A program made the position numbers and the translations under genes. Positions 24,001-51,285 of a DNA stretch of 64,000 nt are shown piece after piece (positions within the stretch are counted from its first letter, which is position 1; every line of letters begins with the position of its first letter). Origin of the DNA: Nemertoderma westbladi. Taxonomy: Eukaryota; Animalia; Xenacoelomorpha. The notes beneath the pieces are model-generated. The model made no database searches. It had not been told where the DNA came from and saw only the letters and a list, made by a program, of their open reading frames with translations. The stretch covers positions 52,953 to 116,952 of the forward strand of contig JAUCBJ010006506.1 of the NCBI GenBank assembly GCA_032718475.1, in the 5' to 3' direction.

Positions 24001-27000
24001 TCGTATTAATATAAAAAATAAATAGGTACCAATGGATAGAGAGAGGTCAAACAATAGTTCGCATTAACCTAAAAAATAAATAGGTACCAATGGATAGAGA
24101 GGTCAAACAATAGTTCGTATTAACCTAAAAAATAAATAGGTACCAATGGATAGAGAGATCAAAAAATAAATAGGTACCAATGGATAGAGAGATCAAAAAA
24201 TAAATAGGTACCAATGGATAGAGAGATCAAAAAATAAATAGGTACCAATGGATAGAGAGAGATCAAACAATAGTTCGTATTAACATAAAAAATAAATAGG
24301 TACCAATGGATAGAGAGAGGTCAAACAATAGTTCGTATTAACATAAAAAATAAATAGGTACCAATGGATAGAGAGAGGTCAAACAATAGTTCGTATTAAC
24401 ATAAAAATTAAATAGGTACCAATGGATAGAGAGAGGTCAAACAATAGTTCGTATTAACATAAAAAATAAATAGGTACCAATGGATAGAGAGAGATCAAAC
24501 AATAGTTCGTATTAACATAAAAAATAAATAGGTACCAATGGATAGAGAGAGGTCAAACAATAGTTCGTATTAACATAAAAAATAAATAGGTACCAATGGA
24601 TAGAGAGAGGTCAAACAATAGTTCGTATTAACATAAAAAATAAATAGGTACCAATGGATAGAGAGAGGTCAAACAATAGTTCGTATTAACATAAAAAATA
24701 AATAGGTACCAATGGATAGAGAGAGATCAAACAATAGTTCGTATTAACATAAAAAATAAATAGGTACCAATGGATAGAGAGAGGTCAAACAATAGTTCGC
24801 ATTAACCTAAAAAATAAATAGGTACCAATGGATAGAGAGATCAAAAAATAAATAGGTACCAATGGATAGAGAGAGATCAAACAATAGTTCGTATTAACAT
24901 AAAAAATAAATAGGTACCAATGGATAGAGAGAGGTCAAACAATAGTTCGTATTAACATAAAAAATAAATAGGTACCAATGGATAGAGAGAGGTCAAACAA
25001 TAGTTCGTATTAACATAAAAATTAAATAGGTACCAATGGATAGAGAGAGGTCAAACAATAGTTCGTATTAACATAAAAAATAAATAGGTACCAATGGATA
25101 GAGAGAGATCAAACAATAGTTCGTATTAACATAAAAAATAAATAGGTACCAATGGATAGAGAGAGGTCAAACAATAGTTCGTATTAACATAAAAAATAAA
25201 TAGGTACCAATGGATAGAGAGAGGTCAAACAATAGTTCGTATTAACATAAAAAATAAATAGGTACCAATGGATAGAGAGAGGTCAAACAATAGTTCGTAT
25301 TAACATAAAAAATAAATAGGTACCAATGGATAGAGAGAGATCAAACAATAGTTCGTATTAACATAAAAAATAAATAGGTACCAATGGATAGAGAGAGGTC
25401 AAACAATAGTTCGTATTAACATAAAAAATAAATAGGTACCAATGGATAGAGAGAGGTCAAACAATAGTTCGTATTAACATAAAAAATAAATAGGTACCAA
25501 TGGATAGAGAGAGGTCAAACAATAGTTCGTATTAACATAAAAAATAAATAGGTACCAATGGATAGAGAGAGGTCAAACAATAGTTCGTATTAACATAAAA
25601 AATAAATAGGTACCAATGGATAGAGAGGTCAAACAATAGTTCGTATTAACCTAAAAAATAAATAGGTACCAATGGATAGAGAGAGGTCAAACAATAGTTC
25701 GTATTAACATAAAAAATAAATAGGTACCAATGGATAGAGAGATCAAAAAATAAATAGGTACCAATGGATAGAGAGAGGTCAAACAATAGTTCGCATTAAC
25801 ATAAAAAATAAATAGGTAACAATGGATAGAGAGAGGTCAAACAATAGTTCGTATTAACATAAAAAATAAATAGGTACCAATGGATAGAGAGAGGTCAAAC
25901 AATAGTTCGTATTAACATAAAAAATAAATAGGTACCAATGGATAGAGAGGTCAAACAATAGTTCGCATTAACATAAAAAATAAATAGGTACCAATGGATA
26001 GAGAGAGGTCAAACAATAGTTCGCATTAACATAAAAAATAAATAGGTACCAATGGATAGAAAGAGGTCAAACAATAGTTCGTATTAACATAAAAAATAAA
26101 TAGGTACCAATGGATAGAGAGGTCAAACAATAGTTCGCATTAACCTAAAAAATAAATAGGTACCAATGGATAGAGAGGTCAAACAATAGTTCGCATTAAC
26201 ATAAAAAATAAATAGGTACCAATGGATAGAGAGGTCAAACAATAGTTCGCATTAACCTAAAAAATAAATAGGTACCAATGGATAGAGAGGTCAAACAATA
26301 GTTCGCATTAACATAAAAAATAAATAGGTACCAATGGATAGAGAGGTCAAACAATAGTTCGCATTAACCTAAAAAATAAATAGGTACCAATGGATAGAGA
26401 GGTCAAACAATAGTTCGCATTAACCTAAAAAATAAATAGGTACCAATGGATAGAGAGGTCAAACAATAGTTCGCATTAACATAAAAAATAAATAGGTACC
26501 AATGGATAGAGAGAGGTCAAACAATATTTCGCATTAACCTAAAAAATAAATAGGTACCAATGGATAGAGAGGTCAAACAATAGTTCGCATTAACCTAAAA
26601 AATAAATAGGTACCAATGGATAGAGAGGTCAAACAATAGTTCGCATTAACATAAAAAATAAATAGGTACCAATGGATAGAGAGGTCAAACAATAGTTCGC
26701 ATTAACATAAAAAATAAATAGGTACCAATGGATAGAGAGGTCAAACAATAGTTCGCATTAACCTAAAAAATAAATAGGTACCAATGGATAGAGAGGTCAA
26801 ACAATAGTTCGCATTAACCTAAAAAATAAATAGGTACCAATGGATAGAGAGAGGTCAAACAATAGTTCGTATTAACATAAAAAATAAATAGGTACCAATG
26901 GATAGAGAGAGGTCAAACAATAGTTCGTATTAACATAAAAAATAAATAGGTACCAATGGATAGAGAGAGGTCAAACAATAGTTCGTATTAACATAAAAAA

Positions 27001-30000
27001 TAAATAGGTACCAATGGATAGAGAGAGGTCAAACAATAGTTCGCATTAACATAAAAAATAAATAGGTACCAATGGATAGAGAGAGGTCAAACAATAGTTC
27101 GTATTAACATAAAAAATAAATAGGTACCAATGGATAGAGAGAGGTCAAACAATAGTTCGTATTAACATAAAAAATAAATAGGTACCAATGGATAGAGAGA
27201 GGTCAAACAATAGTTCGTATTAACATAAAAAATAAATAGGTACCAATGGATAGAGAGAGGTCAAACAATAGTTCGCATTAACATAAAAAATAAATAGGTA
27301 CCAATGGATAGAGAGAGGTCAAACAATAGTTCGTATTAACCTAAAAAATAAATAGGTACCAATGGATAGAGAGAGGTCAAACAATAGTTCGTATTAACAT
27401 AAAAAATAAATAGGTACCAATGGATAGAGAGAGGTCAAACAATAGTTCGTATTAACATAAAAAATAAATAGGTACCAATGGATAGAGAGAGGTCAAACAA
27501 TAGTTCGTATTAACATAAAAAATAAATAGGTACCAATGGATAGAGAGATCAAACAATAGTTCGTATTAACATAAAAAATAAATAGGTACCAATGGATAGA
27601 GAGAGGTCAAACAATAGTTCGTATTAACATAAAAAATAAATAGGTACCAATGGATAGAGAGAGGTCAAACAATAGTTCGTATTAACATAAAAAATAAATA
27701 GGTACCAATGGATAGAGAGAGGTCAAACAATAGTTCGCATTAACATAAAAAATAAATAGGTACCAATGGATAGAGAGAGGTCAAACAATAGTTCGTATTA
27801 ACATAAAAAATAAATAGGTACCAATGGATAGAGAGAGGTCAAACAATAGTTCGTATTAACATAAAAAATAAATAGGTACCAATGGATAGAGAGAGGTCAA
27901 ACAATAGTTCGTATTAACATAAAAAATAAATAGGTACCAATGGATAGAGAGAGGTCAAACAATAGTTCGTATTAACATAAAAAATAAATAGGTACCAATG
28001 GATAGAGAGAGGTCAAACAATAGTTCGCATTAACATAAAAAATAAATAGGTACCAATGGATAGAGAGATCAAACAATAAATAGGTACCAATGGATAGAGA
28101 GAGGTCAAACAATAGTTCGTATTAACATAAAAAATAAATAGGTACCAATGGATAGAGAGAGGTCAAACAATAGTTCGTATTAACATAAAAAATAAATAGG
28201 TACCAATGGATAGAGAGAGGTCAAACAATAGTTCGTATTAACATAAAAAATAAATAGGTACCAATGGATAGAGAGAGGTCAAACAATAGTTCGTATTAAC
28301 ATAAAAAATAAATAGGTACCAATGGATAGAGAGAGGTCAAACAATAGTTCGTATTAACATAAAAAATAAATAGGTACCAATGGATAGATAGAGGTCAAAC
28401 AATAGTTCGTATTAACATAAAAAATAAATAGGTACCAATGGATAGAGAGAGGTCAAACAATAGTTCGCATTAACATAAAAAATAAATAGGTACCAATGGA
28501 TAGAGAGATCAAACAATAAATAGGTACCAATGGATAGAGAGGTCAAACAATAGTTCGCATTAACCTAAAAAATAAATAGGTACCAATGGATAGAGAGAGG
28601 TCAAACAATAAATAGGTACCAATGGATAGAGAGAGATCAAACAATAGTTCGCATTAACCTAAAAAATAAATAGGTACCAATGGATAGAGAGGTCAAACAA
28701 TAGTTCGCATTAACATAAAAAATAAATAGGTACCAATGGATAGAGAGGTCAAACAATAGTTCGTATTAACATAAAAAATAAATAGGTACCAATGGATAGA
28801 GAGATCAAACAATAAATAGGTACCAATGGATAGAGAGGTCAAACAATAGTTCGTATTAACATAAAAAATAAATAGGTAACAATGGATAGAGAGATCAAAA
28901 AATAAATAGGTACCAATGGATAGAGAGAGGTCAAACAATAGTTCGCATTAACCTAAAAAATAAATAGGTACCAATGGATAGAGAGAGGTCAAACAATAAA
29001 TAGGTACCAATGGATAGAGAGAGGTCAAACAATAGTTCGCATTAACCTAAAAAATAAATAGGTACCAATGGATAGAGAGATCAAACAATAAATAGGTACC
29101 AATGGATAGAGAGAGGTCAAACAATAGTTCGCATTAACCTAAAAAATAAATAGGTACCAATGGATAGAGAGAGGTCAAACAATAAATAGGTACCAATGGA
29201 TAGAGAGAGGTCAAACAATAGTTCGCATTAACCTAAAAAATAAATAGGTACCAATGGATAGAGAGAGGTCAAACAATAAATAGGTACCAATGGATAGAGA
29301 GAGGTCAAACAATAAATAGGTACCAATGGATAGAGAGGTCAAACAATAAATAGGTACCAATGGATAGAGAGAGGTCAAACAATAGTTCGCATTAACCTAA
29401 AAAATAAATAGGTACCAATGTATAGAGAGAGGTCAAACAATAAATAGGTACCAATGGATAGAGAGAGGTCAAACAATAAATAGGTACCAATGGATAGAGA
29501 GGTCAAACAATAAATAGGTACCAATGGATAGAGAGGTCAAACAATAGTTCGCATTAACCTAAAAAATAAATAGGTACCAATGGATAGAGAGGTCAAACAA
29601 TAAATAGGTACCAATGGATAGAGAGGTCAAACAATAGTTCGCATTAACCTAAAAAATAAATAGGTACCAATGGATAGAGAGGTCAAACAATAGTTCGCAT
29701 TAACATAAAAAATAAATAGGTACCAATGGATAGAGAGGTCAAACAATAGTTCGCATTAACCTAAAAAATAAATAGGTACCAATGGATAGAGAGGTCAAAC
29801 AATAGTTCGCATTAACCTAAAAAATAAATAGGTACCAATGGATAGAGAGGTCAAACAATAGTTCGCATTAACATAAAAAATAAATAGGTACCAATGGATA
29901 GAGAGGTCAAACAATAGTTCGTATTAACATAAAAAATAAATAGGTACCAATGGATAGAGAGAGGTCAAACAATAGTTCGTATTAACATAAAAAATAAATA

Positions 30001-33000
30001 GGTACCAATGGATAGAGAGAGGTCAAACAATAGTTCGCATTAACATAAAAAATAAATAGGTACCAATGGATAGAGAGAGGTCAAACAATAGTTCGTATTA
30101 ACCTAAAAAATAAATAGGTACCAATGGATAGAGAGAGGTCAAACAATAGTTCGTATTAACATAAAAAATAAATAGGTACCAATGGATAGAGAGAGGTCAA
30201 ACAATAGTTCGTATTAACATAAAAAATAAATAGGTACCAATGGATAGAGAGAGGTCAAACAATAGTTCGTATTAACATAAAAAATAAATAGGTACCAATG
30301 GATAGAGAGATCAAACAATAGTTCGTATTAACATAAAAAATAAATAGGTACCAATGGATAGAGAGAGGTCAAACAATAGTTCGTATTAACATAAAAAATA
30401 AATAGGTACCAATGGATAGAGAGAGGTCAAACAATAGTTCGTATTAACATAAAAAATAAATAGGTACCAATGGATAGAGAGAGGTCAAACAATAGTTCGC
30501 ATTAACATAAAAAATAAATAGGTACCAATGGATAGAGAGAGGTCAAACAATAGTTCGTATTAACATAAAAAATAAATAGGTACCAATGGATAGAGAGAGG
30601 TCAAACAATAGTTCGTATTAACATAAAAAATAAATAGGTACCAATGGATAGAGAGAGGTCAAACAATAGTTCGTATTAACATAAAAAATAAATAGGTACC
30701 AATGGATAGAGAGAGGTCAAACAATAGTTCGTATTAACATAAAAAATAAATAGGTACCAATGGATAGAGAGAGGTCAAACAATAGTTCGCATTAACATAA
30801 AAAATAAATAGGTACCAATGGATAGAGAGATCAAACAATAAATAGGTACCAATGGATAGAGAGAGGTCAAACAATAGTTCGTATTAACATAAAAAATAAA
30901 TAGGTACCAATGGATAGAGAGAGGTCAAACAATAGTTCGTATTAACATAAAAAATAAATAGGTACCAATGGATAGATAGAGGTCAAACAATAGTTCGTAT
31001 TAACATAAAAAATAAATAGGTACCAATGGATAGAGAGAGGTCAAACAATAGTTCGCATTAACATAAAAAATAAATAGGTACCAATGGATAGAGAGATCAA
31101 ACAATAAATAGGTACCAATGGATAGAGAGGTCAAACAATAGTTCGCATTAACCTAAAAAATAAATAGGTACCAATGGATAGAGAGAGGTCAAACAATAAA
31201 TAGGTACCAATGGATAGAGAGAGATCAAACAATAGTTCGCATTAACCTAAAAAATAAATAGGTACCAATGGATAGAGAGGTCAAACAATAGTTCGCATTA
31301 ACATAAAAAATAAATAGGTACCAATGGATAGAGAGGTCAAACAATAGTTCGTATTAACATAAAAAATAAATAGGTACCAATGGATAGAGAGATCAAACAA
31401 TAAATAGGTACCAATGGATAGAGAGGTCAAACAATAGTTCGTATTAACATAAAAAATAAATAGGTAACAATGGATAGAGAGATCAAAAAATAAATAGGTA
31501 CCAATGGATAGAGAGAGGTCAAACAATAGTTCGCATTAACCTAAAAAATAAATAGGTACCAATGGATAGAGAGAGGTCAAACAATAAATAGGTACCAATG
31601 GATAGAGAGAGGTCAAACAATAGTTCGCATTAACCTAAAAAATAAATAGGTACCAATGGATAGAGAGATCAAACAATAAATAGGTACCAATGGATAGAGA
31701 GAGGTCAAACAATAGTTCGCATTAACCTAAAAAATAAATAGGTACCAATGGATAGAGAGAGGTCAAACAATAAATAGGTACCAATGGATAGAGAGAGGTC
31801 AAACAATAGTTCGCATTAACCTAAAAAATAAATAGGTACCAATGGATAGAGAGAGGTCAAACAATAAATAGGTACCAATGGATAGAGAGAGGTCAAACAA
31901 TAAATAGGTACCAATGGATAGAGAGGTCAAACAATAAATAGGTACCAATGGATAGAGAGAGGTCAAACAATAGTTCGCATTAACCTAAAAAATAAATAGG
32001 TACCAATGTATAGAGAGAGGTCAAACAATAAATAGGTACCAATGGATAGAGAGAGGTCAAACAATAAATAGGTACCAATGGATAGAGAGGTCAAACAATA
32101 AATAGGTACCAATGGATAGAGAGGTCAAACAATAGTTCGCATTAACCTAAAAAATAAATAGGTACCAATGGATAGAGAGGTCAAACAATAAATAGGTACC
32201 AATGGATAGAGAGGTCAAACAATAGTTCGCATTAACCTAAAAAATAAATAGGTACCAATGGATAGAGAGAGGTCAAACAATAAATAGGTACCAATGGATA
32301 GAGAGGTCAAACAATAGTTCGCATTAACCTAAAAAATAAATAGGTACCAATGGATAGAGAGAGGTCAAACAATAAATAGGTACCAATGGATAGAGAGAGG
32401 TCAAACAATAAATAGGTACCAATGGATAGAGAGGTCAAACAATAAATAGGTACCAATGGATAGAGAGAGGTCAAACAATAGTTCGCATTAACCTAAAAAA
32501 TAAATAGGTACCAATGTATAGAGAGAGGTCAAACAATAAATAGGTACCAATGGATAGAGAGAGGTCAAACAATAAATAGGTACCAATGGATAGAGAGGTC
32601 AAACAATAAATAGGTACCAATGGATAGAGAGGTCAAACAATAGTTCGCATTAACCTAAAAAATAAATAGGTACCAATGGATAGAGAGGTCAAACAATAAA
32701 TAGGTACCAATGGATAGAGAGGTCAAACAATAGTTCGCATTAACCTAAAAAATAAATAGGTACCAATGGATAGAGAGGTCAAACAATAGTTCGCATTAAC
32801 ATAAAAAATAAATAGGTACCAATGGATAGAGAGGTCAAACAATAGTTCGCATTAACCTAAAAAATAAATAGGTACCAATGGATAGAGAGGTCAAACAATA
32901 GTTCGCATTAACCTAAAAAATAAATAGGTACCAATGGATAGAGAGGTCAAACAATAGTTCGTATTAACCTAAAAAATAAATAGGTACCAATGGATAGAGA

Positions 33001-34167
33001 GGTCAAACAATAGTTCGCATTAACATAAAAAATAAATAGGTACCAATGGATAGAGAGGTCAAACAATAGTTCGCATTAACCTAAAAAATAAATAGGTACC
33101 AATGGATAGAGAGAGGTCAAACAATAGTTCGTATTAACATAAAAAATAAATAGGTACCAATGGATAGAGAGAGGTCAAACAATAGTTCGTATTAACATAA
33201 AAAATAAATAGGTACCAATGGATAGAGAGAGGTCAAACAATAGTTCGTATTAACATAAAAAATAAATAGGTACCAATGGATAGAGAGAGGTCAAACAATA
33301 GTTCGCATTAACATAAAAAATAAATAGGTACCAATGGATAGAGAGAGGTCAAACAATAGTTCGTATTAACATAAAAAATAAATAGGTACCAATTGATAGA
33401 GAGAGGTCAAACAATAGTTCGTATTAACATAAAAAATAAATAGGTACCAATGGATAGAGAGAGGTCAAACAATAGTTCGTATTAACATAAAAAATAAATA
33501 GGTACCAATGGATAGAGAGAGGTCAAACAATAGTTCGTATTAACATAAAAAATAAATAGGTACCAATGGATAGAGAGAGGTCAAACAATAGTTCGTATTA
33601 ACATAAAAAATAAATAGGTACCAATTGATAGAGAGAGGTCAAACAATAGTTCGTATTAACATAAAAAATAAATAGGTACCAATGGATAGAGAGAGGTCAA
33701 ACAATAGTTCGTATTAACATAAAAAATAAATAGGTACCAATGGATAGAGAGAGGTCAAACAATAGTTCGTATTAACATAAAAAATAAATAGGTACCAATG
33801 GATAGAGAGAGGTCAAACAATAGTTCGTATTAACATAAAAAATAAATAGGTACCAATGGATAGAGAGAGGTCAAACAATAGTTCGCATTAACCTAAAAAA
33901 TAAATAGGTACCAATGGATAGAGAGAGGTCAAACAATAGTTCGTATTAACATAAAAAATAAATAGGTACCAATGGATAGAGAGAGGTCAAACAATAGTTC
34001 GTATTAACATAAAAAATAAATAGGTACCAATGGATAGAGAGAGGTCAAACAATAGTTCGTATTAACATAAAAAATAAATAGGTACCAATGGATAGAGAGA
34101 GGTCAAACAATAGTTCGTATTAACCTAAAAAATAAATAGGTACCAATGGATAGAGAGGTCAAACAAT
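1..34167. repeat. Intronic satellite A, 58/56-bp monomer with 34-36-bp deletion variants, roughly 600 copies, truncated by the window start
   Basis: Consensus + strand GGTCAAACAATAGTTCG(T/C)ATTAAC(A/C)TAAAAAATAAATAGGTACCAATGGATAGAGAGA. TACCAATGG recurs at 1, 59 and 93 (periods 58 and 34). Almost every unit carries a GGTACC. The array ends at about 34167. Confidence 0.99.
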
Positions 34168-34253
34168 TTAAATAGATACTAAACTGTGTAAAAAACAAAC
34201 AAACAAATATTTGAATAGCCTAAACAAAGATAGTCAATTAAGACTATACTTAC
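1..34253 (-). other. Intron 3 (phase 2) of the SLC1 gene, partial, >34 kb
   Basis: Donor AA|GTAAGT at 34253 on the minus strand. Only 34168-34253 is non-repetitive. The acceptor is not in the window. Confidence 0.85.
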
Positions 34254-34426
34254 TTGAGAACAACAAGGTTGAACTGGGTCACCATTTGTATAAACACTTG
34301 ACAATCTTTTTGAACACTACCAGCTGTAACTCCAACAGCTATACTGAATACCATACAACCGAGTAGATTCATATTGGAGGTGGTCCTCTGAACATATCCG
34401 GTAAACTCCCAGTCAGAGTCATTCAT
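34254..34426 (-). CDS. SLC1/EAAT-family transporter, coding exon 3 (173 nt; absent from the ORF track)
   Basis: Manual translation: ttctgcag|MNDSDWEFTGYVQRTTSNMNLLGCMVFSIAVGVTAGSVQKDCQVFIQMVTQFNLVVL+AA|gtaagt. This resembles the EAAT 'MNVLGLIVFSIVFG...FF..LNE..M' region and joins exon 2 in phase 0. Confidence 0.9.
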
Positions 34427-34513
34427 CTGCAGAATAAATCCTTAAGTTTAAAAAAAAAGGTTAATTATTGAATAAAGAAAGTCGCACTCACACAAGATTG
34501 CTAAGATAGAGAG

Positions 34514-37500
34514 ATATTGATGGAACGTTCAGAACTATCTAATTTATATTGCGGGAACGTTCAAAACTATCTCATTTATATTGAAGGAACGTTCAGAAAT
34601 ATCTAATTTATATTGAAAGAACGTTCAGAACTATCTAATTTATTGTGAAGGAACGTTCCGTGCAAACCTGTTTATATTGAAGGAACGTTCCGTGCTAACC
34701 TGTTTATATTGCAGGAACGTTCAAAACTATCTAATTTATATTGAAGGAACGTTCAGAACTATCTAATTTATATTGAAAGAACGTTCAGAACTATCTAATT
34801 TATTGTGAAGGAACGTTCCGTGCAAACCTGTTTATATTGAAGGAACGTTCCGTGCTAACCTGTTTATATTGCAGGAACGTTCAAAACTATCTAATTTATA
34901 TTGAAGGAACGTTCAGAACTATCTAATTTATATTGAAAGGACGTTCAGAACTATCTAATTTATTGTGAAGGAACGTTCCGTGCAAACCTGTTTATATTGA
35001 AGGAACGTTCAAAATTATCTAATTTATATTGAAGGAACTTTCAGAACTATCTAAATTATATTGAAGGAACGTTCAAAACTATCTGATTTATATTGAAGGA
35101 ACGTTCAGAACTATCTAATTTATATTTCAGGAACGTTCAAAACTATCTAATTTATATTGAAGGAACGTTCAGAACTATCTAATTTATATTGAAGGAACGT
35201 TCAGAACTATCTAATTTATATTTCAGGAACGTTCAAAACTATCTAATTTATATTGAAGGAACGTTCAGAACTATCTAATTTATATTGAAGGAACGTTCCG
35301 CGCAAACCTGTTTATATTGAAGGAACGTTCCGTACTAACCTGTTTATATTGTAGGAACGTTCAAAATTATCTAATTTATATTGAAGGAACTTTCAGAACT
35401 ATCTAAATTATATTGAAGGAACGTTCAAAACTATCTGATTTATATTGAAGGAACGTTCAGAACTATCTAATTGATATTGAAGGAACGTTCAGAACTATCT
35501 AATTGATATTGAAGGAACGTCAGAATTATCTAATTTATTGTGAAGGAACGTTCCGTGCTAACCTGTTTATATTGAAGGAACGTTCCGTGCTAACCTGTTT
35601 ATATTGCAGGAACGTTCAAATCTGTCTAATGTATATTGCAGGAACGTTCAAAACTATCTAATTTATATTGAAGGAACTTTCAGAACTATCTAAATTATAT
35701 TGAAGGAACGTTCAAAACTATCTGATTTATATTGAAGGAACGTTCAGAACTATCTAATTGATATTGAAGGAACGTCAGAATTATCTAATTTATTGTGAAG
35801 GAACGTTCCGTGCTAACCTGTTTATATTGAAGGAACGTTCCGTGCTAACCTGTTTATATTGCAGGAACGTTCAAATCTGTCTAATGTATATTGCAGGAAC
35901 GTTCAAAACTATCTAATTTATATTGAAGGAACGTTTAAAACTATCTAATTTATATTGAAGGAACGTTCAGAACTATCTAATTTATATTTCAGGAACGTTC
36001 AAAACTATCTAATTTATATTGAAGGAACGTTCAGAACTATCTAATTTATATTGAAGGAACGTTCAGAACTATCTAATTTATATTGAAGGAACGTTCAGAA
36101 CTATCTAATTTATATTGCAGGAACGCTCAAAACTATCTAATTTATATTGAAGGAACGTTCAAAAGTATCTAATTTATATTGAAGGAACGTTCAGAATTAT
36201 CTAATTTATATTGAATGAACATTCCGTGCTAACCTGTTTATATTGAAGGAACGTTCCGTGCTAACCTGTTTATATTGAAGGAACGTTCCGTGCTAACCTG
36301 TTTATATTGCAGGAACGTTCAAATCTGTCTAATTTATACTGCAGGAACGTTCAAAACTATCTAATTTATATTGCAGGAACTTTCAAAACTATCTAATTTA
36401 TATTGAAGGAACGTTCAGAACTATCTAATTTATATTGAAGGAACGTTCAGAACTATCTAATTTATATTTCAGGAACGTTCAAAACTATCTAATTTATATT
36501 GAAGGAACGTTCAGAACTATCTAATTTATATTGAAGGAACGTTCAGAACTATCTAATTTATATTGCAGGAACGCTCAAAACTATCTAATTTATATTGAAG
36601 GAACGTTCAAAAGTATCTAATTTATATTGAAAGAACGTTCAGAATTATCTAATTTATATAAGTGTAATTTATATTGAATGAACATTCCGTGCTTACCTGT
36701 TTATATTGAAGAACGTTCCGTGCTAACCTGTTTATATTGCAGGAACGTTCAAAACTATATAATATATATTGAAGGAACGTTCAGAACTATCTAATTTATA
36801 TTGAAGGAACGTTCAGAACTATCTAATTTATATTGAAGGAACGTTCAGAACTATCTAATTTATATTGAAGGAACGTTCAGAATAATCTAATTTATTGTGA
36901 AGGAACGTTCCGTGCTAACCTGTTTATATTGCAGGAACGTTCAAAACTATCTAATTTATATTAAAGGAACGTTCAGAATTATCTAATTTATTGTGAAGGG
37001 ACGTTCCGTGCTAACCTGTTTATATTGCAGGAACGTTCAAAACTATCTAATTTATATTAAAGGAACGTTCAGAATTATCTAATTTATTGTGAAGGGACGT
37101 TCCGTGCTAACCTGTTTATATTGAAGGAACGTTCCGTGCTAACCTGTTTATATTGCAGGAACGTTCAAAACTATCTAATTTATATTGAAGGAACGTTCAG
37201 AATTATCTAATTTATTGAGAAGGAGCGTTCCGTGCTAACCTGTTTATATTGCAGGAACGTTCAAAACTATCTAATTTATATTAAAGGAACGTTCAGAATT
37301 ATCTAATTTATTGTGAAGGGACGTTCCGTGCTAACCTGTTTATATTGCAGGAACGTTCAAAACTATCTAATTTATATTAAAGGAACGTTCAGAATTATCT
37401 AATTTATTGTGAAGGGACGTTCCGTGCTAACCTGTTTATATTGAAGGAACGTTCCGTGCTAACCTGTTTATATTTCAGGAACGTTCATAACTTTCTAATT

Positions 37501-37646
37501 TATATTGAAGGAACGTTCAGAATTATCGAATTTAATGTGAAGGAACGTTCCGTTCTAACCTGTTTATATTGAAGAAACGTTCCAGGCTAACCTGTTTATA
37601 TTGAAGGAACGTTCCAGGCTAACCTGTTTATATTGAAGGAACGTTC
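34514..37646. repeat. Intronic satellite B, 32-bp monomer, about 95-100 copies, overlapping the exon-2 donor
   Basis: Two monomer types: GAAGGAACGTTCAGAACTATCTAATTTATATT and GAAGGAACGTTCCGTGCTAACCTGTTTATATT. The terminal copy overlaps the last 23 nt of exon 2. Confidence 0.98.
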
Positions 37647-37947
37647 TGGTGCTGCCGGTCATGGCACCGATTATATTATCTGGGCACAGGTTGTAGAGAA
37701 GATCAAAGAAGCTATGGACACTAGTCCCTTCTCGCTCGGCAGGGTCCTCTTCAATTTTTACGCCGGATATGGGCAGAGTAACGCCGGGGTTTATTGCTAA
37801 AGCGATCCCGAGTCCACTAGATACCGCGAGCACCGTGGTACCTATGTAGAAGAGGATAACCCTGAGACCAATGGATCCGGTCACACTGGGGTCTAGATTG
37901 GCGACACCGGAAACAAGGCTGCCCATCACAAATGGGAGAATCACCAG
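37624..37947 (-). CDS. SLC1/EAAT-family transporter, coding exon 2 (324 nt)
   Basis: ttacag|LVILPFVMGSLVSGVANLD...GLRVILFYIGTTVLAVSSGLGIALAINPG...SFFDLLYNLCPDNIIGA...FLQYKQ|gttagc. Matches the EAAT motifs 'LVLPLIISSLVTG', 'YYxxTT', 'IHPG' and 'FLDLIRNxFPxNL'. 108 codons, phase 0 at both ends. Confidence 0.95.
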
Positions 37948-40900
37948 CTGTAACGAAGTAAGAACCAATGATTGGGAAAGGTCACCAGCAGTAAAGGAAG
38001 CAAGTAAGATGCAATGATAGGGAAAGGTCAACAGCTGTAAGTAAGTGAGTAAGATACAATGATAGGGAAAGGTCAACTCAACAGCTGTAAGGAAGCAAGT
38101 AAGATGCAATGATAGGGAAAGGTCAACAGCTGTAAGTAAGTGAGTAGGATACAATGATAGGGAAAGGTCAACTCAACAGCTGTAAATAAGTAAGTAAGAT
38201 GCAATGATAGGGAAAGGTCACCAGCTGTAAGGAAGCAAGCAAAATACAATGGTAGGGAAAGGTCACCAGCTGTAAGGAAGCAAGTAAGATACAATGATAG
38301 GGAAAGGTCACCAGCTGTAAGGAAGTAAGTAAGATACAATGATAGGGAAAGGTCAACTCAACAGCTGTAAGGAAGCAAGTAAGATGCAATGATAGGGAAA
38401 GGTCAACAGCTGTAAGTAAGTGAGTAGGATACAATGATAGGGAAAGGTCAACTCAACAGCTGTAAATAAGTAAGTAAGATGCAATGATAGGGAAAGGTCA
38501 CCAGCTGTAAGGAAGCAAGCAAAATACAATGGTAGGGAAAGGTCACCAGCTGTAAGGAAGCAAGTAAGATACAATGATAGGGAAAGGTCACCAGCTGTAA
38601 GGAAGTAAGTAAGATACAATGATAGGGAAAGGTCACCAGCAGTAAAGGAAGCAAGTAAAATACAATGATAGGGAAAGGTCACCAGCAGTAAAGGAAGCAA
38701 GTAAAATACAATGATAGGGAAAGGTCACCAGCAGTAAAGGAAGCAAGTAAAATACAATGATAGGGAAAGGTCACCAGCAGTAAAGGAAGCAAGTAAAATA
38801 CAATGATAGGGAAAGGTCACCAGCAGTAAAGGAAGCAAGTAAAATACAATGATAGGGAAAGGTCACCAGCAGTAAAGGAAGCAAGTAAAATACAATGATA
38901 AGGAAAGGTCACCAGCTGTAAGGAAGTAAGTAAAATACAATGATAAGGAAAGGTCAACAGCTGTAAGGAAATAAGTAAGAACCAATGATTGGGAAAGGTC
39001 AACAGCTGTAAGGAAGTAAGTAAGATACAATGATAGGGAAAGGTCACCAGTTGTAAGGAAGCAAGTAAAATACAATGATAAGGAAAGGTCACCAGCTGTT
39101 AGGAAGTAAGTAAAATACAATGATGAGGAAAGGTCAACAGCTGTAAGGAAATAAGTAAGAACCAATGATTGGGAAAGGTCAACAGCTGTAAGGAAGTAAG
39201 TAAGATACAATGATAGGGAAAGGTCACCAGCAGTAAAGGAAGCAAGTAAAATACAATGATAGGGAGAGGTCACCAGCAGTAAAGGAAGCAAGTAAAATAC
39301 AATGATAGGGAAAGGTCACCAGCAGTAAAGGAAGCAAGTAAAATACAATGATAGGGAAAGGTCACCAGCAGTAAAGGAAGCAAGTAAAATACAATGATAA
39401 GGAAAGGTCACCAGCTGTAAGGAAGTAAGTAAAATACAATGATGAGGAAAGGTCAACAGCTGTAAGGAAATAAGTAAGAACCAATGATTGGGAAAGGTCA
39501 ACAGCTGTAAGGAAGTAAGTAAGATACAATGATAGGGAAAGGTCACCAGTTGTAAGGAAGCAAGTAAGATACAATGATAGGGAAAGGTCACCAGTTGTAA
39601 GGAAGTAAGTAAAATACAATGATGAGGAAAGGTCAACAGCTGTAAGGAAATAAGTAAGAACCAATGATTGGGAAAGGTCAACAGCTGTAAGGAAATAAGT
39701 AAGAACCAATGATTGGGAAAGGTCAACAGCTGTAAGGAAGTAAGTAAGATACAATGATAAGGAAAGGTCACCAGCTGTAAGGAAGTAAGTAAAATACAAT
39801 GATGAGGAAAGGTCAACAGCTGTAAGGAAATAAGTAAGAACCAATGATTGGGAAAGGTCAACAGCTGTAAGGAAGTAAGTAAGAACCAATGATTGGGAAA
39901 GGTCAACAGCTGTAAGGAAGTAAGTAAGATACAATGATAGGGAAAGGTCACCAGTTGTAAGGGAGCAAGTAAAATACAATGATAAGGAAAGGTCAACAGC
40001 TGTAAGGAAGTAAGTAAAATACAATGATAGGGAAAGGTCACCAGCAGTAAAGGAAGCAAGTAAAATACAATGATAGGGAAAGGTCACCAGCAGTAAAGGA
40101 AGCAAGTAAAATACAATGATAGGGAAAGGTCACCAGCAGTAAGGAAATAAGTAAGAACCAATGATTGGGAAAGGTCAACAGCTGTAAGGAAGTAAGTAAG
40201 ATACAATAATAGGGAAAGGTCACCAGCTGTAAGGAAGTAAGTAAGATACAATGATAGGGAAAGGTCACCAGCTGTAAGGAAGTAAGTAAGATACAATGAT
40301 AGGGAAAGGTCACCAGTTGTAAAGGAAGCAAGTAAAATACAATGATAGGGAAAGGTCACCAGCTGTAAGGAAGTAAGTAAAATACAATGATAGGGAAAGG
40401 TCACCAGCAGTAAGGAAGTAAGTAAAATACAATGATAGGGAAAGGTCAACAGCTGTAAGGAAGTAAGTAAAATACAATGATAAGGAAAGGTCAACAGCTG
40501 TAAGGAAGTAAGTAAGATACAATGATAGGGAAAGGTCACCAGCAGTAAAGGAAGCAAGTAAAATACAATGATAAGGAAAGGTCACCAGCAGTAAGGAAGT
40601 AAGTAAGATACAATGATGAGGAAAGGTCAACAGCTGTAAGGAAATAAGTAAGAACCAATGATTGGGAAAGGTCAACAGCTGTAAGGAAGTAAGTAAGATA
40701 CAATGATAGGGAAAGGTCACCAGTTGTAAGGAAGCAAGTAAAATACAATGATGAGGAAAGGTCACCAGCAGTAAGGAAATAAGTAAGAACCAATGATTGG
40801 GAAAGGTCAACAGCTGTAAGGAAGTAAGTAAGATACAATGATAGGGAAAGGTCACCAGCTGTAAGGAAGTAAGTAAGATACAATGATGAGGAAAGGTCAA

Positions 40901-43900
40901 CAGCTGTAAGGAAATAAGTAAGAACCAATGATTGGGAAAGGTCAACAGCTGTAAGGAAGTAAGTAAGATACAATGATAGGGAAAGGTCACCAGCTGTAAG
41001 GAAGTAAGTAAGATACAATGATGAGGAAAGGTCAACAGCTGTAAGGAAATAAGTAAGAACCAATGATTGGGAAAGGTCAACAGCTGTAAGGAAGTAAGTA
41101 AGATACAATGATAGGGAAAGGTCACCAGCAGTAAAGGAAGCAAGTAAAATACAATGATAGGGAAAGGTCACCAGCAGTAAAGGAAGCAAGTAAAATACAA
41201 TGATAGGGAAAGGTCACCAGCAGTAAGGAAATAATTAAGAACCAATGATTGGGAAAGGTCAACAGCTGTAAGGAAGTAAGTAAGATACAATGATAGGGAA
41301 AGGTCACCAGTTGTAAAGGAAGCAAGTAAAATACAATGACAGGGAAAGGTCACCAGCAGTAAAGGAAGCAAGTAAAATACAATGATAGGGAAAGGTCACC
41401 AGCAGTAAAGGAAGCAAGTAAAATACAATGATAGGGAAAGGTCACCAGCAGTAAAGGAAGCAAGTAAAATACAATGATAGGGAAAGGTCACCAGCAGTAA
41501 AGGAAGCAAGTAAAATACAATGATAGGGAAAGGTCACCAGCAGTAAAGGAAGCAAGTAAAATACAATGATAGGGAAAGGTCACCAGCAGTAAAGGAAGCA
41601 AGTAAAATACAATGACAGGGAAAGGTCACCAGCAGTAAGGAAGTAAGTAAAATACAATGATAGGGAAAGGTCACCAGCTGTAAGGAAGTAAGTAAGATAC
41701 AATGATAGGGAAAGGTCACCAGCAGTAAAGGAAGCAAGTAAAATACAATGACAGGGAAAGGTCACCAGCAGTAAAGGAAGCAAGTAAAATACAATGATAG
41801 GGAAAGGTCACCAGCAGTAAAGGAAGCAAGTAAAATACAATGATAGGGAAAGGTCACCAGCAGTAAAGGAAGCAAGTAAAATACAATGATAAGGAAAGGT
41901 CACCAGCTGTAAGGAAGTAAGTAAGATACAATGATAGGGAAAGGTCACCAGCTGTAAGGAAGTAAGTAAGATACAATGATAGGGAAAGGTCACCAGCAGT
42001 AAAGGAAGCAAGTAAAATACAATGATAGGGAAAGGTCACCAGCAGTAAAGGAAGCAAGTAAAATACAATGATAGGGAAAGGTCACCAGCAGTAAGGAAGT
42101 AAGTAAAATACAATGATAGGGAAAGGTCACCAGCAGTAAAGGAAGCAAGTAAAATACAATGATAGGGAAAGGTCACCAGCTGTAAGGAAGTAAGTAAAAT
42201 ACAATGATAGGGAAAGGTCACCAGCAGTAAAGGAAGCAAGTAAAATACAATGATAGGGAAAGGTCACCAGCTGTAAGGAAGTAAGTAAAATACAATGATA
42301 GGGAAAGGTCACCAGCAGTAAGGAAGTAAGTAAAATACAATGATAGGGAAAGGTCACCAGCTGTAAGGAAGTAAGTAAGATACAATGATAGGGAAAGGTC
42401 ACCAGCAGTAAAGGAAGCAAGTAAAATACAATGATAGGGAAAGGTCACCAGCAGTAAAGGAAGCAAGTAAAATACAATGATAGGGAAAGGTCACCAGCTG
42501 TAAGGAAGTAAGTAAGATACAATGATAGGGAAAGGTCACCAGCAGTAAAGGAAGCAAGTAAAATACAATGATAGGGAAAGGTCACCAGCTGTAAGGAAGT
42601 AAGTAAGATACAATGATAGGGAAAGGTCACCAGCAGTAAAGGAAGCAAGTAAAATACAATGATAGGGAAAGGTCACCAGCAGTAAAGGAAGCAAGTAAAA
42701 TACAATGATAGGGAAAGGTCACCAGCTGTAAGGAAGTAAGTAAGATACAATGATAGGGAAAGGTCACCAGCTGTAAGGAAGTAAGTAAAATACAATGATA
42801 GGGAAAGGTCACCAGCTGTAAGGAAGTAAGTAAAATACAATGATAGGGAAAGGTCACCAGCAGTAAAGGAAGCAAGTAAAATACAATGATAGGGAAAGGT
42901 CACCAGCAGTAAGGAAGTAAGTAAAATACAATGATAGGGAAAGGTCACCAGCAGTAAAGGAAGCAAGTAAAATACAATGATAGGGAAAGGTCACCAGCAG
43001 TAAAGGAAGCAAGTAAAATACAATGATAGGGAAAGGTCACCAGCTGTAAGGAAGTAAGTAAGATACAATGATAGGGAAAGGTCACCAGCAGTAAAGGAAG
43101 CAAGTAAAATACAATGACAGGGAAAGGTCACCAGCAGTAAAGGAAGCAAGTAAAATACAATGAGGGGGAAAGGTCACCAGCTGTAAGGAAGCAAGTAAAA
43201 TACAATGATAGGGAAAGGTCACCAGCAGTAAGGAAGTAAGTAAAATACAATGATAGGGAAAGGTCACCAGCAGTAAGGAAGTAAGTAAAATACAATGATA
43301 GGGAAAGGTCACCAGCTGTAAGGAAGTAAGTAAAATACAATGATAGGGAAAGGTCACCAGCAGTAAGGAAGTAAGTAAAATACAATGATAGGGAAAGGTC
43401 ACCAGCTGTAAGGAAGTAAGTAAGATACAATGATAGGGAAAGGTCACCAGCTGTAAGGAAGTAAGTAAAATACAATGATAGGGAAAGGTCACCAGCTGTA
43501 AGGAAGTAAGTAAAATACAATGATAGGGAAAGGTCACCAGCAGTAAAGGAAGCAAGTAAAATACAATGACAGGGAAAGGTCACCAGCAGTAAAAGAAGCA
43601 AGTAAAATACAATGATAGGGAAAGGTCACCAGCAGTAAGGAAGTAAGTAAAATACAATGATAGGGAAAGGTCACCAGCAGTAAAGGAAGCAAGTAAAATA
43701 CAATGACAGGGAAAGGTCACCAGCAGTAAAGGAAGCAAGTAAAATACAATGACAGGGAAAGGTCACCAGCAGTAAAGGAAGCAAGTAAAATACAATGATA
43801 GGGAAAGGTCACCAGCAGTAAGGAAGTAAGTAAAATACAATGATAGGGAAAGGTCACCGGCAGTAAGGAAGTAAGTAAAATACAATGATAGGGAAAGGTC

Positions 43901-46900
43901 ACCAGCAGTAAGGAAGTAAGTAAAATACAATGATAGGGAAAGGTCACCAGCTGTAAGGAAGTAAGTAAGATACAATGATAGGGAAAGGTCACCAGCTGTA
44001 AGGAAGTAAGTAAAATACAATGATAGGGAAAGGTCACCAGCTGTAAGGAAGTAAGTAAAATACAATGATAGGGAAAGGTCACCAGCAGTAAAGGAAGCAA
44101 GTAAAATACAATGATAGGGAAAGGTCACCAGCAGTAAGGAAGTAAGTAAAATACAATGATAGGGAAAGGTCACCAGCAGTAAGGAAGTAAGTAAAATACA
44201 ATGATAGGGAAAGGTCACCAGCTGTAAGGAAGTAAGTAAGATACAATGATAGGGAAAGGTCAACAGCTGTAAATAAGTAAGTAAAATACAATGATAGGGA
44301 AAGGTCACCAGCTGTAAGGAAGTAAGTAAAATACAATGATAGGGAAAGGTCACCAGCAGTAAGGAAGTAAGTAAAATACAATGATAGGGAAAGGTCACCA
44401 GCTGTAAGGAAGTAAGTAAGATACAATGATAGGGAAAGGTCACCAGCAGTAAAGGAAGCAAGTAAAATACAATGATAGGGAAAGGTCACCAGCAGTAAAG
44501 GAAGCAAGTAAAATACAATGATAGGGAAAGGTCACCAGCTGTAAGGAAGTAAGTATGATACAATGATAGGGAAAGGTCACCAGCAGTAAAGGAAGCAAGT
44601 AAAATACAATGACAGGGAAAGGTCACCAGCAGTAAAGGAAGCAAGTAAAATACAATGATAGGGAAAGGTCACCAGCAGTAAAGGAAGCAAGTAAAATACA
44701 ATGACAGGGAAAGGTCACCAGCAGTAAAGGAAGCAAGTAAGATACAATGATAGGGAAAGGTCACCAGCTGTAAGGAAGTAAGTAAGATACAATGATAGGG
44801 AAAGGTCACCAGCAGTAAAGGAAGCAAGTAAAATACAATGACAGGGAAAGGTCACCAGCAGTAAAGGAAGCAAGTAAAATACAATGACAGGGAAAGGTCA
44901 CCAGCAGTAAAGGAAGCAAGTAAAATACAATGATAGGGAAAGGTCACCAGCAGTAAAGGAAGCAAGTAAAATACAATGATAGGGAAAGGTCACCAGCAGT
45001 AAAGGAAGCAAGTAAAATACAATGATAGGGAAAGGTCACCAGCTGTAAGGAAGCAAGTAAAATACAATGATAGGGAAAGGTCACCAGCTGTAAGGAAATA
45101 AGTAAGAACCAATGATTGGGAAAGGTCAACAGCTGTAAGGAAGTAAGTAAGATACAATGATAGGGAAAGGTCACCAGCAGTAAAGGAAGCAAGTAAAATA
45201 CAATGATAGGGAAAGGTCACCAGCTGTAAGGAAGTAAGTAAGATACAATGATAGGGAAAGGTCACCAGCAGTAAAGGAAGCAAGTAAAATACAATGACAG
45301 GGAAAGGTCACCAGCAGTAAAGGAAGCAAGTAAAATACAATGATAGGGAAAGGTCACCAGCAGTAAAGGAAGCAAGTAAAATACAATGATAGGGAAAGGT
45401 CACCAGCTGTAAGGAAGTAAGTAAAATACAATGATAGGGAAAGGTCACCAGCAGTAAAGGAAGCAAGTAAAATACAATGATAGGGAAAGGTCACCAGCAG
45501 TAAAGGAAGCAAGTAAAATACAATGATAGGGAAAGGTCACCAGCTGTAAGGAAGTAAGTAAGATACAATGATAGGGAAAGGTCACCAGTTGTAAGGAAGC
45601 AAGTAAAATACAATGATAAGGAAAGGTCACCAGCTGTAAGGAAGTAAGTAAAATACAATGATAGGGAAAGGCCACCAGCAGTAAAGGAAGCAAGTAAAAT
45701 ACAATGATAGGGAAAGGTCACCAGCAGTAAAGGAAGCAAGTAAAATACAATGATAGGGAAAGGTCACCAGCTGTAAGGAAGTAAGTAAGATACAATGATA
45801 GGGAAAGGTCACCAGCAGTAAAGGAAGCAAGTAAAATACAATGATAAGGAAAGGTCACCAGCAGTAAAGGAAGCAAGTAAAATACAATGATAGGGAAAGG
45901 TCACCAGCAGTAAAGGAAGCAAGTAAAATACAATGATAGGGAAAGGTCACCAGCTGTAAGGAAGTAAGTAAGATACAATGATAGGGAAAGGTCACCAGCA
46001 GTAAAGGAAGCAAGTAAAATACAATGATAAGGAAAGGTCACCAGCAGTAAAGGAAGCAAGTAAAATACAATGATAAGGAAAGGTCACCAGCAGTAAAGGA
46101 AGCAAGTAAAATACAATGATAGGGAAAGGTCACCAGCTGTAAGGAAGTAAGTAAGATACAATGATAGGGAAAGGTCACCAGCAGTAAAGGAAGCAAGTAA
46201 AATACAATGATAGGGAAAGGTCACCAGCAGTAAAGGAAGCAAGTAAAATACAATGATAGGGAAAGGTAAACAGCTGTAAGGAAGTAAGTAAAATACAATG
46301 ATAGGGAAAGGTCACCAGCAGTAAAGGAAGCAAGTAAAATACAATGATAGGGAAAGGTCACCAGCTGTAAGGAAGTAAGTAAGATACAATGATAGGGAAA
46401 GGTCACCAGCTGTAAGGAAGTAAGTAAGATACAATGATAGGGAAAGGTCACCAGCTGTAAGGAAGCAAGTAAAATACAATGATAAGGAAAGGTCACCAGC
46501 AGTAAAGGAAGCAAGTAAAATACAATGATAGGGAAAGGTCACCAGCTGTAAGGAAGTAAGTAAGATACAATGATAGGGAAAGGTCACCAGCAGTAAAGGA
46601 AGCAAGTAAAATACAATGATAGGGAAAGGTCACCAGCAGTAAAGGAAGCAAGTAAAATACAATGATAGGGAAAGGTCACCAGCTGTAAGGAAGTAAGTAA
46701 GATACAATGATAGGGAAAGGTCACCAGCAGTAAAGGAAGCAAGTAAAATACAATGATAGGGAAAGGTCACCAGCTGTAAGGAAGCAAGTAAAATACAATG
46801 ATAGGGAAAGGTCACCAGCAGTAAGGAAGTAAGTAAAATACAATGATAGGGAAAGGTCACCAGCTGTAAGGAAGTAAGTAAGATACAATGATAGGGAAAG

Positions 46901-49900
46901 GTCACCAGCAGTAAAGGAAGCAAGTAAAATACAATGATAGGGAAAGGTCACCAGCAGTAAGGAAGTAAGTAAAATACAATGATAGGGAAAGGTCACCAGC
47001 AGTAAGGAAGTAAGTAAGATACAATGATAGGGAAAGGTCACCTGCTGTAAGGAAGTAAGTAAGATACAATGATGAGGAAAGGTCAACAGCTGTAAGGAAA
47101 TAAGTAAGAACCAATGATTGGGAAAGGTCAACAGCTGTAAGGAAGTAAGTAAGATACAATGAGGGAAAGGTCACCAGCTGTAAGGAAGTAAGTAAAATAC
47201 AATGATAAGGAAAGGTCACCAGCAGTAAAGGAAGCAAGTAAAATACAATGATAGGGAGAGGTCAACAGCTGTAAGGAAATAAGTAAGAACCAATGATTGG
47301 GAAAGGTCAACAGCTGTAAGGAAGTAAGTAAGATACAATGATAGGGAAAGGTCACCAGTTGTAAAGGAAGCAAGTAAAATACAATGATAAGGAAAGGTCA
47401 ACAGCTGTAAGGAAATAAGTAAGAACCAATGATTGGGAAAGGTCAACAGCTGTAAGGAAGTAAGTAAGATACAATGATAGGGAAAGGTCACCAGTTGTAA
47501 AGGAAGCAAGTAAAATACAATGACAGGGAAAGGTCACCAGCAGTAAAGGAAGTAAGTAAGATACAATGAGGGAAAGGTCACCAGCTGTAAGGAAGTAAGT
47601 AAGATACAATGATGAGGAAAGGTCAACAGCTGTAAGGAAATAAGTAAGATACAATGAGGGAAAGGTCACCAGCTGTAAGGAAGTAAGTAAAATACAATGA
47701 TGAGGAAAGGTCAACAGCTGTAAGGAAATAAGTAAGAACCAATGATTGGGAAAGGTCAACAGCTGTAAGGAAGTAAGTAAGATACAATGAGGGAAAGGTC
47801 ACCAGCTGTAAGGAAGTAAGTAAAATACAATGATGAGGAAAGGTCAACAGCTGTAAGGAAATAAGTAAGAACCAATGATTGGGAAAGGTCAACAGCTGTA
47901 AGGAAGTAAGTAAGATACAATGACAGGGAAAGGTCACCAGCAGTAAAGGAAGCAAGTAAAATACAATGACAGGGAAAGGTCACCAGCAGTAAAGGAAGCA
48001 AGTAAAATACAATGATAGGGAAAGGTCACCAGCAGTAAGGAAGTAAGTAAAATACAATGATAGGGAAAGGTCACCAGCTGTAAGGAAGTAAGTAAGATAC
48101 AATGATAGGGAAAGGTCACCAGCTGTAAGGAAGTAAGTAAAATACAATGATAGGGAAAGGTCACCAGCAGTAAAGGAAGCAAGTAAAATACAATGATAGG
48201 GAAAGGTCACCAGCAGTAAAGGAAGCAAGTAAAATACAATGATAGGGAAAGGTCACCAGCAGTAAAGGAAGCAAGTAAGATACAATGAGGGAAAGGTCAC
48301 CAGCTGTAAGGAAGTAAGTAAGATACAATGATAGGGAAAGGTCACCAGCTGTAAGGAAGTAAGTAAGATACAATGATGAGGAAAGGTCAACAGCTGTAAG
48401 GAAATAAGTAAGAACCAATGATTGGGAAAGGTCAACAGCTGTAAGGAAGTAAGTAAGATACAATGATAGGGAAAGGTCACCAGTTGTAAGGAAGCAAGTA
48501 AAATACAATGATGAGGAAAGGTCAACAGCTGTAAGGAAATAAGTAAGAACCAATGATTGGGAAAGGTCAACAGCTGTAAGGAAGTAAGTAAGATACAAGG
48601 ATACGGAAAGGTCACCAGTTGTAAGGAAGTAAGTAAGATACAATGAGGGAAAGGTCACCAGCAGTAAAGGAAGCAAGTAAAATACAATGATAGGGAAAGG
48701 TCACCAGCAGTAAAGGAAGCAAGTAAAATACAATGATAAGGAAAGGTCACCAGTTGTAAGGAAGTAAGTAAAATACAATGATAAGGAAAGGTCACCAGCA
48801 GTAAAGGAAGCAAGTAAGATACAATGAGGGAAAGGTCACCAGCTGTAAGGAAGTAAGTAAGATGCAATGATAGGGAAAGGTCACCAGCTGTAAGGAAGCA
48901 AGAAAAATACAATGATAAGGAAAGGTCACCAGCAGTAAGGAAGTAAGTAAGATACAATGATAGGGAAAGGTCACCAGCAGTAAAGGAAGCAAGTAAGATG
49001 CAATGATAGGGAAAGGTCACCAGCTGTAAGGAAGCAAGAAAAATACAATGATAAGGAAAGGTCAACAGCTGTAAGGAAGTAAGTAAGATACAAGGATAGG
49101 GAAAGGTCACCAGCAGTAAAGGAAGCAAGTAAGATGCAATGATAGGGAAAGGTCACCAGCTGTAAGGAAGCAAGAAAAATACAATGATAAGGAAAGGTCA
49201 ACAGCTGTAAGGAAGTAAGTAAGATACAAGGATAGGGAAAGGTCACCAGCAGTAAAGGAAGCAAGTAAGATGCAATGATAGGGAAAGGTCACCAGCTGTA
49301 AGGAAGCAAGAAAAATACAATGATAAGGAAAGGTCAACAGCTGTAAGGAAGTAAGTAAGATACAATGATAGGGAAAGGTCACCAGCTGTAAGGAAGTAAG
49401 TAAAATACAATGATGAGGAAAGGTCAACAGCTGTAAGGAAATAAGTAAGAACCAATGATTGGGAAAGGTCTACAGCTGTAAGGAAATAAGTAAGAACCAA
49501 TGATTGGGAAAGGTCAACAGCTGTAAGGAAATAAGTAAGAACCAATGATTGGGAAAGGTCAACAGCTGTAAGGAAGTAAGTAAGATACAATGATAGGGAA
49601 AGGTCAACAGCTGTAAGGAAATAAGTAAGAACCAATGATTGGGAAAGGTCAACAGCTGTAAGGAAGTAAGTAAAATACAATGATTGGGAAAGGTCACCAG
49701 CTGTAAGGAAGTAAGTAAGATACAAGGATAGGGAATGGTCACCAGCTGTAAGGAAGTAAGTAAGATACAAGGATAAGGAAAGGTCACCAGCTGTAAGGAA
49801 GTAAGTAAAATACAATGATAGGGAAAGGTCACCAGCAGTAAAGGAAGCAAGTAAAATACAATGATAGGGAAAGGTCACCAGCAGTAAAGGAAGCAAGTAA

Positions 49901-51081: not shown

Positions 51082-51285
51082 CATATTTATCGCCCTGTAA
51101 GTAAGGTGAAGTACAATGTATGTGAAGGGTCATCAGCCCACCCCATTTATTAGACAAGACCGGTCATATGGCAACGACAATAAGTTGTTGTGATTAGTAA
51201 TTAGTGACTATTTATCGCCTATATTGGCTTTTATGGTATTATATTATCATTTACACTACTGCCTGACAAATAGTAAAATTCTCAC

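Follow-up and report, generated by a model that had tools for sequence, protein, structure and literature searches.

Junction satellites in three introns of an SLC1-type gene of Nemertoderma westbladi: the match between two of them probably centres on a branch point

The stretch of DNA considered here (the window) comprises 64,000 nucleotides (nt) of the Nemertoderma westbladi assembly GCA_032718475.1 (contig JAUCBJ010006506.1, positions 52,953 to 116,952 of the forward strand). It consists mostly of five tandem arrays, satellites A to E, three of which (A, B and C) are separated by exons of a minus-strand gene of the SLC1/EAAT type. An earlier note, made from the letters alone, had drawn attention to a motif of about 32 nt that A and C share upstream of the acceptor AG. 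It proposed that the 3′ ends of the two introns either have a common ancestor, such as an introner-like or other mobile element, or carry an extended, lineage-specific 3′ splice signal. This text examines the anatomy of the arrays, the size and significance of the match between A and C, and the explanations that can be offered for it. Coordinates are collected in Table 1.

Exons 1 to 3 of the gene share one reading frame, have GT donors and end in phase 2. The best solved-structure match of exon 2 is excitatory amino acid transporter 3. Its protein relatives are 30–48% identical among the 150 listed, with the nearest in the top rows at approximately 40%; one homologue search with this exon gave no match, and the eight metagenome loci appear to be intronless SDF genes of bacterial type. 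Evidence for splicing comes from a single contig (3113 nt, n = 1) of a single run labelled ‘DNA?’ (X4), and contigs hide minor isoforms. The contig spans 34252–34429 without differing letters and continues past this stretch on both sides. One loose end corresponds to the end of exon 2, which gives a direct exon 2–exon 3 join; the other carries new sequence, and its initial 21 nt are identical to the part of satellite A that follows the AG. The spliced form, together with a word share of 0.23, suggests that the contig is derived from RNA; none of the listed runs is recorded as such. Its exon 3–4 join reads K-L-M-R-T-I-V-W-L-L-P (translated by hand), and this segment matches 25 of the 26 homologues with the pattern, at a fixed distance (150 homologues examined). 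The exon 1–exon 2 junction is predicted from the reading frame and was not seen in the contig. On the exon 2 side, the 1720 contig letters would accommodate exon 2 together with an unspliced exon 1 that begins near 52684, which by arithmetic lies within unique DNA; this is consistent with the exon 1–exon 2 model but no proof of it. Three DNA runs (X1–X3) gave no contigs on 34108–34530, and are uninformative on the arrays in other individuals.

All three introns seen in the gene are filled by junction satellites, and the unique parts of introns 1, 2 and 3 amount to just 204, 87 and 86 nt. The unit of satellite A combines the 3′ end of intron 3 with the first 21 nt of exon 4, as the X4 contig confirms; the array runs off the window, and its working acceptor and exon 4 lie outside. 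AG followed by the exact 21 exon-4 nt is present in 70 copies. In satellite C, the unit joins the 3′ end of intron 1 to 7 nt from the start of exon 2. Satellite B lies across a donor instead, that of exon 2; its unit takes in 23 nt of the exon end and 9 nt of intron 2, and the donor used, according to the X4 contig, is that of the first copy. One period upstream of array C lies a diverged C monomer, the similarity of which to a common C monomer is reached by 9 of 5000 shuffles. The 13-nt patch beside it (51082–51133 region) has 11 nt in common with a site that lies some 120 nt further upstream (approximately 51205–51215), in the manner of a templated insertion. The possibility that the C unit beyond its first 7 nt is a decayed copy of exon 2 found no support, with 4134 and 4962 of 5000 shuffles reaching the score.

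Table 1. Arrays, exons and putative branch-point cores in the 64,000-nt window.
Feature	Position	Strand	Description
Coding exon 1	51286..51513	-	76 codons; open reading frame, in frame with exons 2 and 3; donor GTGAGA
Exon 2	37624..37947	-	324 nt; Pfam SDF PF00375; donor GTTAGC at 37623
Exon 3	34254..34426	-	173 nt; donor GTAAGT; phase 2; covered by the X4 contig with 0 other letters
Satellite A	1..34167	-	at least 639 units of 58/56 nt, with 36/34-nt short forms
Satellite B	34514..37646	-	about 97 units of 32 nt
Satellite C	37941..51081	-	about 284 units of 45–46 nt
Diverged C monomer	51095..51133	-	in array register; 13-nt patch between monomer and array
Core of terminal C copy	37977..37984	-	TGACCTTT; putative branch A 37982 (−35); acceptor AG 37949–37948
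Core of intron 2	34456..34463	-	TAACCTTT; acceptor not amplified; putative branch A 34461 (−35)
Core of first A unit	34154..34161	-	TGACCTCT; putative branch A 34159; AG 34126–34125
Satellite D	52875–54965		63-nt unit
Satellite E	55855–57099		28-nt unit, about 44 copies

Many units have lost the splice dinucleotide. It is intact in 86 of 639 units of A, 152 of 284 of C and 27 of 97 of B. No column of the 58-nt A units varies more than the G of the AG, which differs in 88% (three columns vary at ≥5%), and 119 short A units lack the AG by deletion. The frequency of splice-dead copies in all three arrays suggests selection against spare sites. In the case of C, the spare acceptor nearest to exon 2 is dead, and the next intact one lies 87 nt upstream (37948–38034), where its use would add 29 in-frame codons without a stop.

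The strings quoted by the earlier note for A and C are both present in the window and agree at 25 of 32 positions with one gap. The two arrays lie in different introns of the SLC1 gene, as had been stated (A in intron 3, C in intron 1), and the unique 5′ parts of these introns are unrelated (score reached by 1326 of 2000 shuffles). There are 352 occurrences of the A string, of which the last is at 34075, with the copy at 34125–34167 being of the 56-nt form; the C string occurs 24 times, the first at 38972. The match is real and modestly above chance, but the quoted C variant is a minority form: when the C copies are compared with the top A monomer, just 25 of 285 attain 25/32, and the mean is 21.6/32. 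Nor is the motif purely intronic, since its initial letters agree with exon sequence as well, TTG of A with exon 4 and TGA of C with exon 2. The working C copy beside exon 2 is itself of the A-like type of the quoted variant (23 of 30 aligned columns), and the choice of variant is therefore not arbitrary. When this copy and A are both cut at the motif start, 1 of 5000 shuffles reaches their score. In circular dinucleotide shuffles (400 per comparison), a control of the kind that the earlier note had proposed, the score of the quoted C variant was reached by 0, those of the two commonest C monomers by 70 and 10, and those of the nine other array pairs by 58–385.

With the choice of variant built into the null (30 C variants, which account for 248 of 280 units, and the top three A variants; uncorrected for the 10 array pairs), 24 of 3000 shuffles reach the A–C score, and 1 of 250 in a smaller run. 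The longest exact string common to A and C is 10 nt, equal to that of C and E and to that of A and B on opposite strands. By our arithmetic, 24 of 3000 becomes approximately 0.08–0.16 after 10–20 array comparisons, which leaves room for chance and composition to account for the match throughout, with the register of its first 8 nt (see below) included. These letters would then have no role in branching, and TG(A) would be simply the exon-matching end of the unit. The exon matches of TTG and TGA, and an AAG at −16 in intron 2, fit this explanation. It is nevertheless unlikely, because intron 2 carries the same letters in exact register, with neither satellite nor exon overlap behind them.

The excess of the A–C match over shuffles sits in these first 8 nt, TRACCTYT, which start 37 nt before the intron end and form its informative part. 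Best-of-variants scores for the remainder are reached by 65 of 1500 shuffles. When TGA and AG are dropped, the score of the working C copy is reached by 85 of 5000 shuffles against the 58-nt A unit and by 443 of 5000 against the 56-nt unit, and those of the two commonest C monomers by 212–2267 of 3000; with the core removed, 269–323 of 4000 reach the score of the working C copy. If core and AG are held fixed, 498 of 5000 shuffles reach the A–C remainder, and 617 of 5000 reach that between A and intron 2. The acceptor of intron 2, being single-copy, is the decisive control. Its core is the single TRACCTYT in 20,446 non-array bases, and in shuffled versions of this intron end it appears exactly at −37 in 1 of 20,000 and within −39 to −35 in 12 of 20,000. 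Over the last 37 nt, intron 2 has more ungapped identities to A (21) than the terminal C copy has (17).

The cores of intron 2, the 56-nt A unit and the terminal C copy begin at −37, and that of the 58-nt A unit at −39. This places a putative branch adenosine at −35 in all three introns, and at −37 in the 58-nt unit. The human branch-point consensus is YTNAY (PMC10638238), the commonest human branch-point hexamer is ctgacc, and the mean distance between branch point and AG in mammals is 31.5 nt (PMC2483917). TTAAC in intron 2 and TTGAC in A fit the consensus, and in all three introns TRAC is followed by pyrimidines a few tens of nt before the AG. As a rule, no other AG lies between the branch adenosine and the acceptor; this holds for introns 1 and 3. 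Judged by these features of the letters, the TRACCTYT core is likely to be a U2-type branch point with its adenosine at −35.

The most probable explanation of the whole is, in our view, that A and C arose as separate tandem amplifications of their own junctions, that the informative part of their match is this likely branch point at −37, and that the rest reflects pyrimidine-rich sequence, chance and the choice of variant. Several observations weigh against it. A and C themselves supplied the core pattern, and its one independent test, intron 2, comes from the same gene. In the terminal C copy the candidate branch site reads GTGAC, with a G in place of a pyrimidine at branch −3, and in intron 2 the AAG at −16 stands between the putative branch adenosine and the AG that is used. 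Three introns with one and the same −35 spacing show less variation than mammalian branch points usually do (PMC10638238). Finally, the similarity does not vanish entirely with the core: that of the quoted C variant is still reached by just 34–36 of 4000 shuffles, the best-of-variants residual is the 65 of 1500 given above, and CATTGGT is exact in both A and C. A small CATTGGT residual thus remains, and is not decisive; the heptamer is found in 24 of 280 C units.

This residual is the point at which the splice-signal half of the earlier interpretation parts company with the data. That half is supported for the 8-nt core, which also occurs in intron 2. CATTGGT is absent from intron 2, and the full 32 nt therefore do not constitute an extended signal. 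An extended, lineage-specific 3′ splice signal might seem to be indicated by two acceptors that carry the motif in similar register; it is made extremely improbable by intron 2, the one other acceptor in the window, which has the 8-nt core but no CATTGG, and by the majority of C units, which carry another form.

A source for the CATTGG of A may exist close at hand. In the homologues, the residues that follow Trp-x-x-Pro are I, V or L in 25 of 26 and then Gly in 25 of 26, and an A is the following base in the exon 4 sequence; this exon is therefore likely, on the strength of these homologues, to continue with Ile-Gly codons resembling CATTGG. The A unit reads S-I-G-T-Y-L-F in one frame, and exonic Ile-Gly codons are a possible local source of the residual in A. 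Another origin would be an old copying event within the locus. Until the arrays expanded, less than about 1 kb would have separated the ends of introns 1 and 3, and a template switch could have copied some 30 nt from one to the other, followed by drift to about 75% identity. The residual CATTGGT match, the A-like type of the working C copy and the shortness of the unique intron parts are all compatible with this, and the 13-nt patch at the edge of C, with its 11 nt from a site about 120 nt upstream, suggests that templated patches do occur here. We regard such copying as improbable: the diverged monomer at the 5′ edge of C is no closer to A (635 of 5000 shuffles) and has CATTGTA, like the C majority; CATTGGT is confined to its small minority of C units; and there is no exact tract of more than 10 nt, with intron 2 matching A equally well.

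The mobile-element half of the earlier interpretation is not supported. A dispersed element, either introner-like or a short interspersed repeat, would have given both introns their 3′ ends; the whole-unit match above shuffles, and unit junctions that coincide with the motif start, fit such an origin. Introners, however, show similarity near both ends of the introns, and here the 5′ parts are unrelated, so that the introner claim fails on similarity at both ends. Terminal inverted repeats are lacking as well, with the best scores in introns 1, 2 and 3 reached by 615, 138 and 1999 of 2000 shuffles. Apart from the diverged C monomer, no third copy exists in the non-array DNA of the window or in arrays B, D and E. 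B, D and E show no same-strand similarity to A or C, and no core. The quoted motif had no exact match in viral contigs either, a weak negative, since the organism's own DNA is outside that collection. A mobile origin is very unlikely on these grounds, and the A–C match is probably not a new mobile element.

If A and C are separate amplifications of their own junctions, the arrays may have started by slippage or unequal exchange at a 7–8 nt repeat that the start of the exon has in common with the intron; in A, the 8 nt that close the exon-matching part of the first copy also stand ahead of that copy. Growth would have proceeded by unequal crossing-over, with the spliceosome presumably using the copy that adjoins the real exon. 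For an acceptor to survive, branch point, pyrimidine tract and AG would then have to be retained together in the last copy, and the shortest tolerated units would therefore start near the branch point. Satellite B likewise holds just 9 intronic nt after its exon part. The motif would thus act as a filter on which units survive, rather than as a mobile seed. The earlier note had supposed that it seeds or bounds the amplification; bounding holds as a description, as the exon-matching stretch ends at or beside the putative branch adenosine in both A and C; seeding is conjectural. That both unit junctions fall within one base of this adenosine is tighter than the survival filter alone requires.

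The precision of these junctions could also be explained by an origin from RNA, in which a lariat–exon intermediate is reverse-transcribed up to the branch, and the resulting units, extending from branch to exon start, integrate and amplify. In both arrays the intron-specific part does start at the putative branch adenosine or one base after it. Such an origin is nonetheless hardly credible. Satellite B spans a donor, which is cut in the lariat–exon intermediate, and a DNA-based route is needed for it in any case; moreover, the 8-nt string ahead of the first A copy is what slippage predicts. A more far-reaching proposal is that this lineage possesses a strong branch point fixed in position (TRACCTYT, with A at −35), that giant introns form through junction units cut at the branch point, and that selection favours splice-dead copies. 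We put this forward as a tentative and rather doubtful extension. The −35 spacing may be lineage-specific; three introns of one gene are too few to show this.

The other parts of the window yielded a few observations of their own. Satellite D contains a 670-amino-acid (aa) repeat open reading frame on the plus strand, probably a by-product of its 21-codon unit, and on its minus strand a looser TRAYCTYY occurs in 33 units. Between D and E, at 55020–55134, lies a short cluster of 16–18 nt repeats containing GGCGATAA. An uninterrupted 568-aa open reading frame (58617–60323, plus strand) is rich in Glu, Lys and Leu and by eye resembles a coiled coil; it has no Pfam match and no homologue among 7995 candidates scored. 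The minus strand of 63106–64000 carries the 3′ part of a katanin p80 gene (PF13925 con80), 39% identical to a bird KTNB1, the frame of which is open to the window end.

What the locus offers, then, does not need a new mobile element: the match is mostly a splice signal that any acceptor-spanning repeat must carry. What merits attention across the genome is how large the arrays are, the constancy of the −35 spacing and the abundance of splice-dead copies. The 324-nt exon stands between about 150 spare acceptors that are intact and 26 spare donors, which makes the gene an extreme natural experiment in splice-site choice. Should the −35 spacing and the branch-bounded units prove to be general in the genome, they would illustrate the influence of selection for splicing on which satellites are able to grow in genes.

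Several known systems provide points of comparison. The core resembles U2-type branch points (YTNAY; CTRAY-like) in having TRAC and pyrimidines about 35 nt before the intron end, and differs in that three of three introns share 8 positions and the spacing; constrained branch spacing has been reported mainly in intron-poor yeasts and protists (PMC2483917, PMC10638238). Introners are characterised by similarity near both splice boundaries in at least four introns, with terminal inverted repeats in some families (bioRxiv 10.1101/2022.06.06.494994). The present case resembles them in that a pair of introns have similar stretches which end near the acceptor, but the 5′ ends are unrelated.

Closer parallels are found among repeats at exon–intron boundaries, which have been surveyed in human (PMC2812944). 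In CBS 844ins68, the unit is likewise an intron end joined to an exon start; splicing uses the distal site and yields a normal mRNA (PMC2630376), with one extra copy as against the hundreds found here. The 37-bp variable-number tandem repeat in intron 7 of human F7 (IVS7; PMC1557585) is a model for satellite B, in that its first unit spans the donor and the most upstream donor alone is used; it concerns the donor side only, and has no bearing on the A–C match. Among titles and the opening lines of abstracts, with few subscription papers included, no junction satellites bounded by a branch point or as large as these were found. In amphioxus, ‘mirages’ are tandem copies of exon–intron boundaries, of donors as well as acceptors, described for Adh3, the globins BflGb6 and BflGb9, troponin C and PGBD5, with splicing reported to be normal (PMC3087553, PMC3902484). 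Both fully tested features of mirages are present in these arrays: in A, B and C, the tandem unit spans an exon–intron boundary of the host gene, and many, though not all, units keep their AG or GT. The amphioxus clusters described there comprise 2–7 units of 10–160 bp (PMC3087553, PMC3902484), whereas here about 97, 284 and at least 639 units fill three consecutive introns of 3, 13 and more than 34 kb. By these features, the arrays appear to be very large mirages of the amphioxus type.

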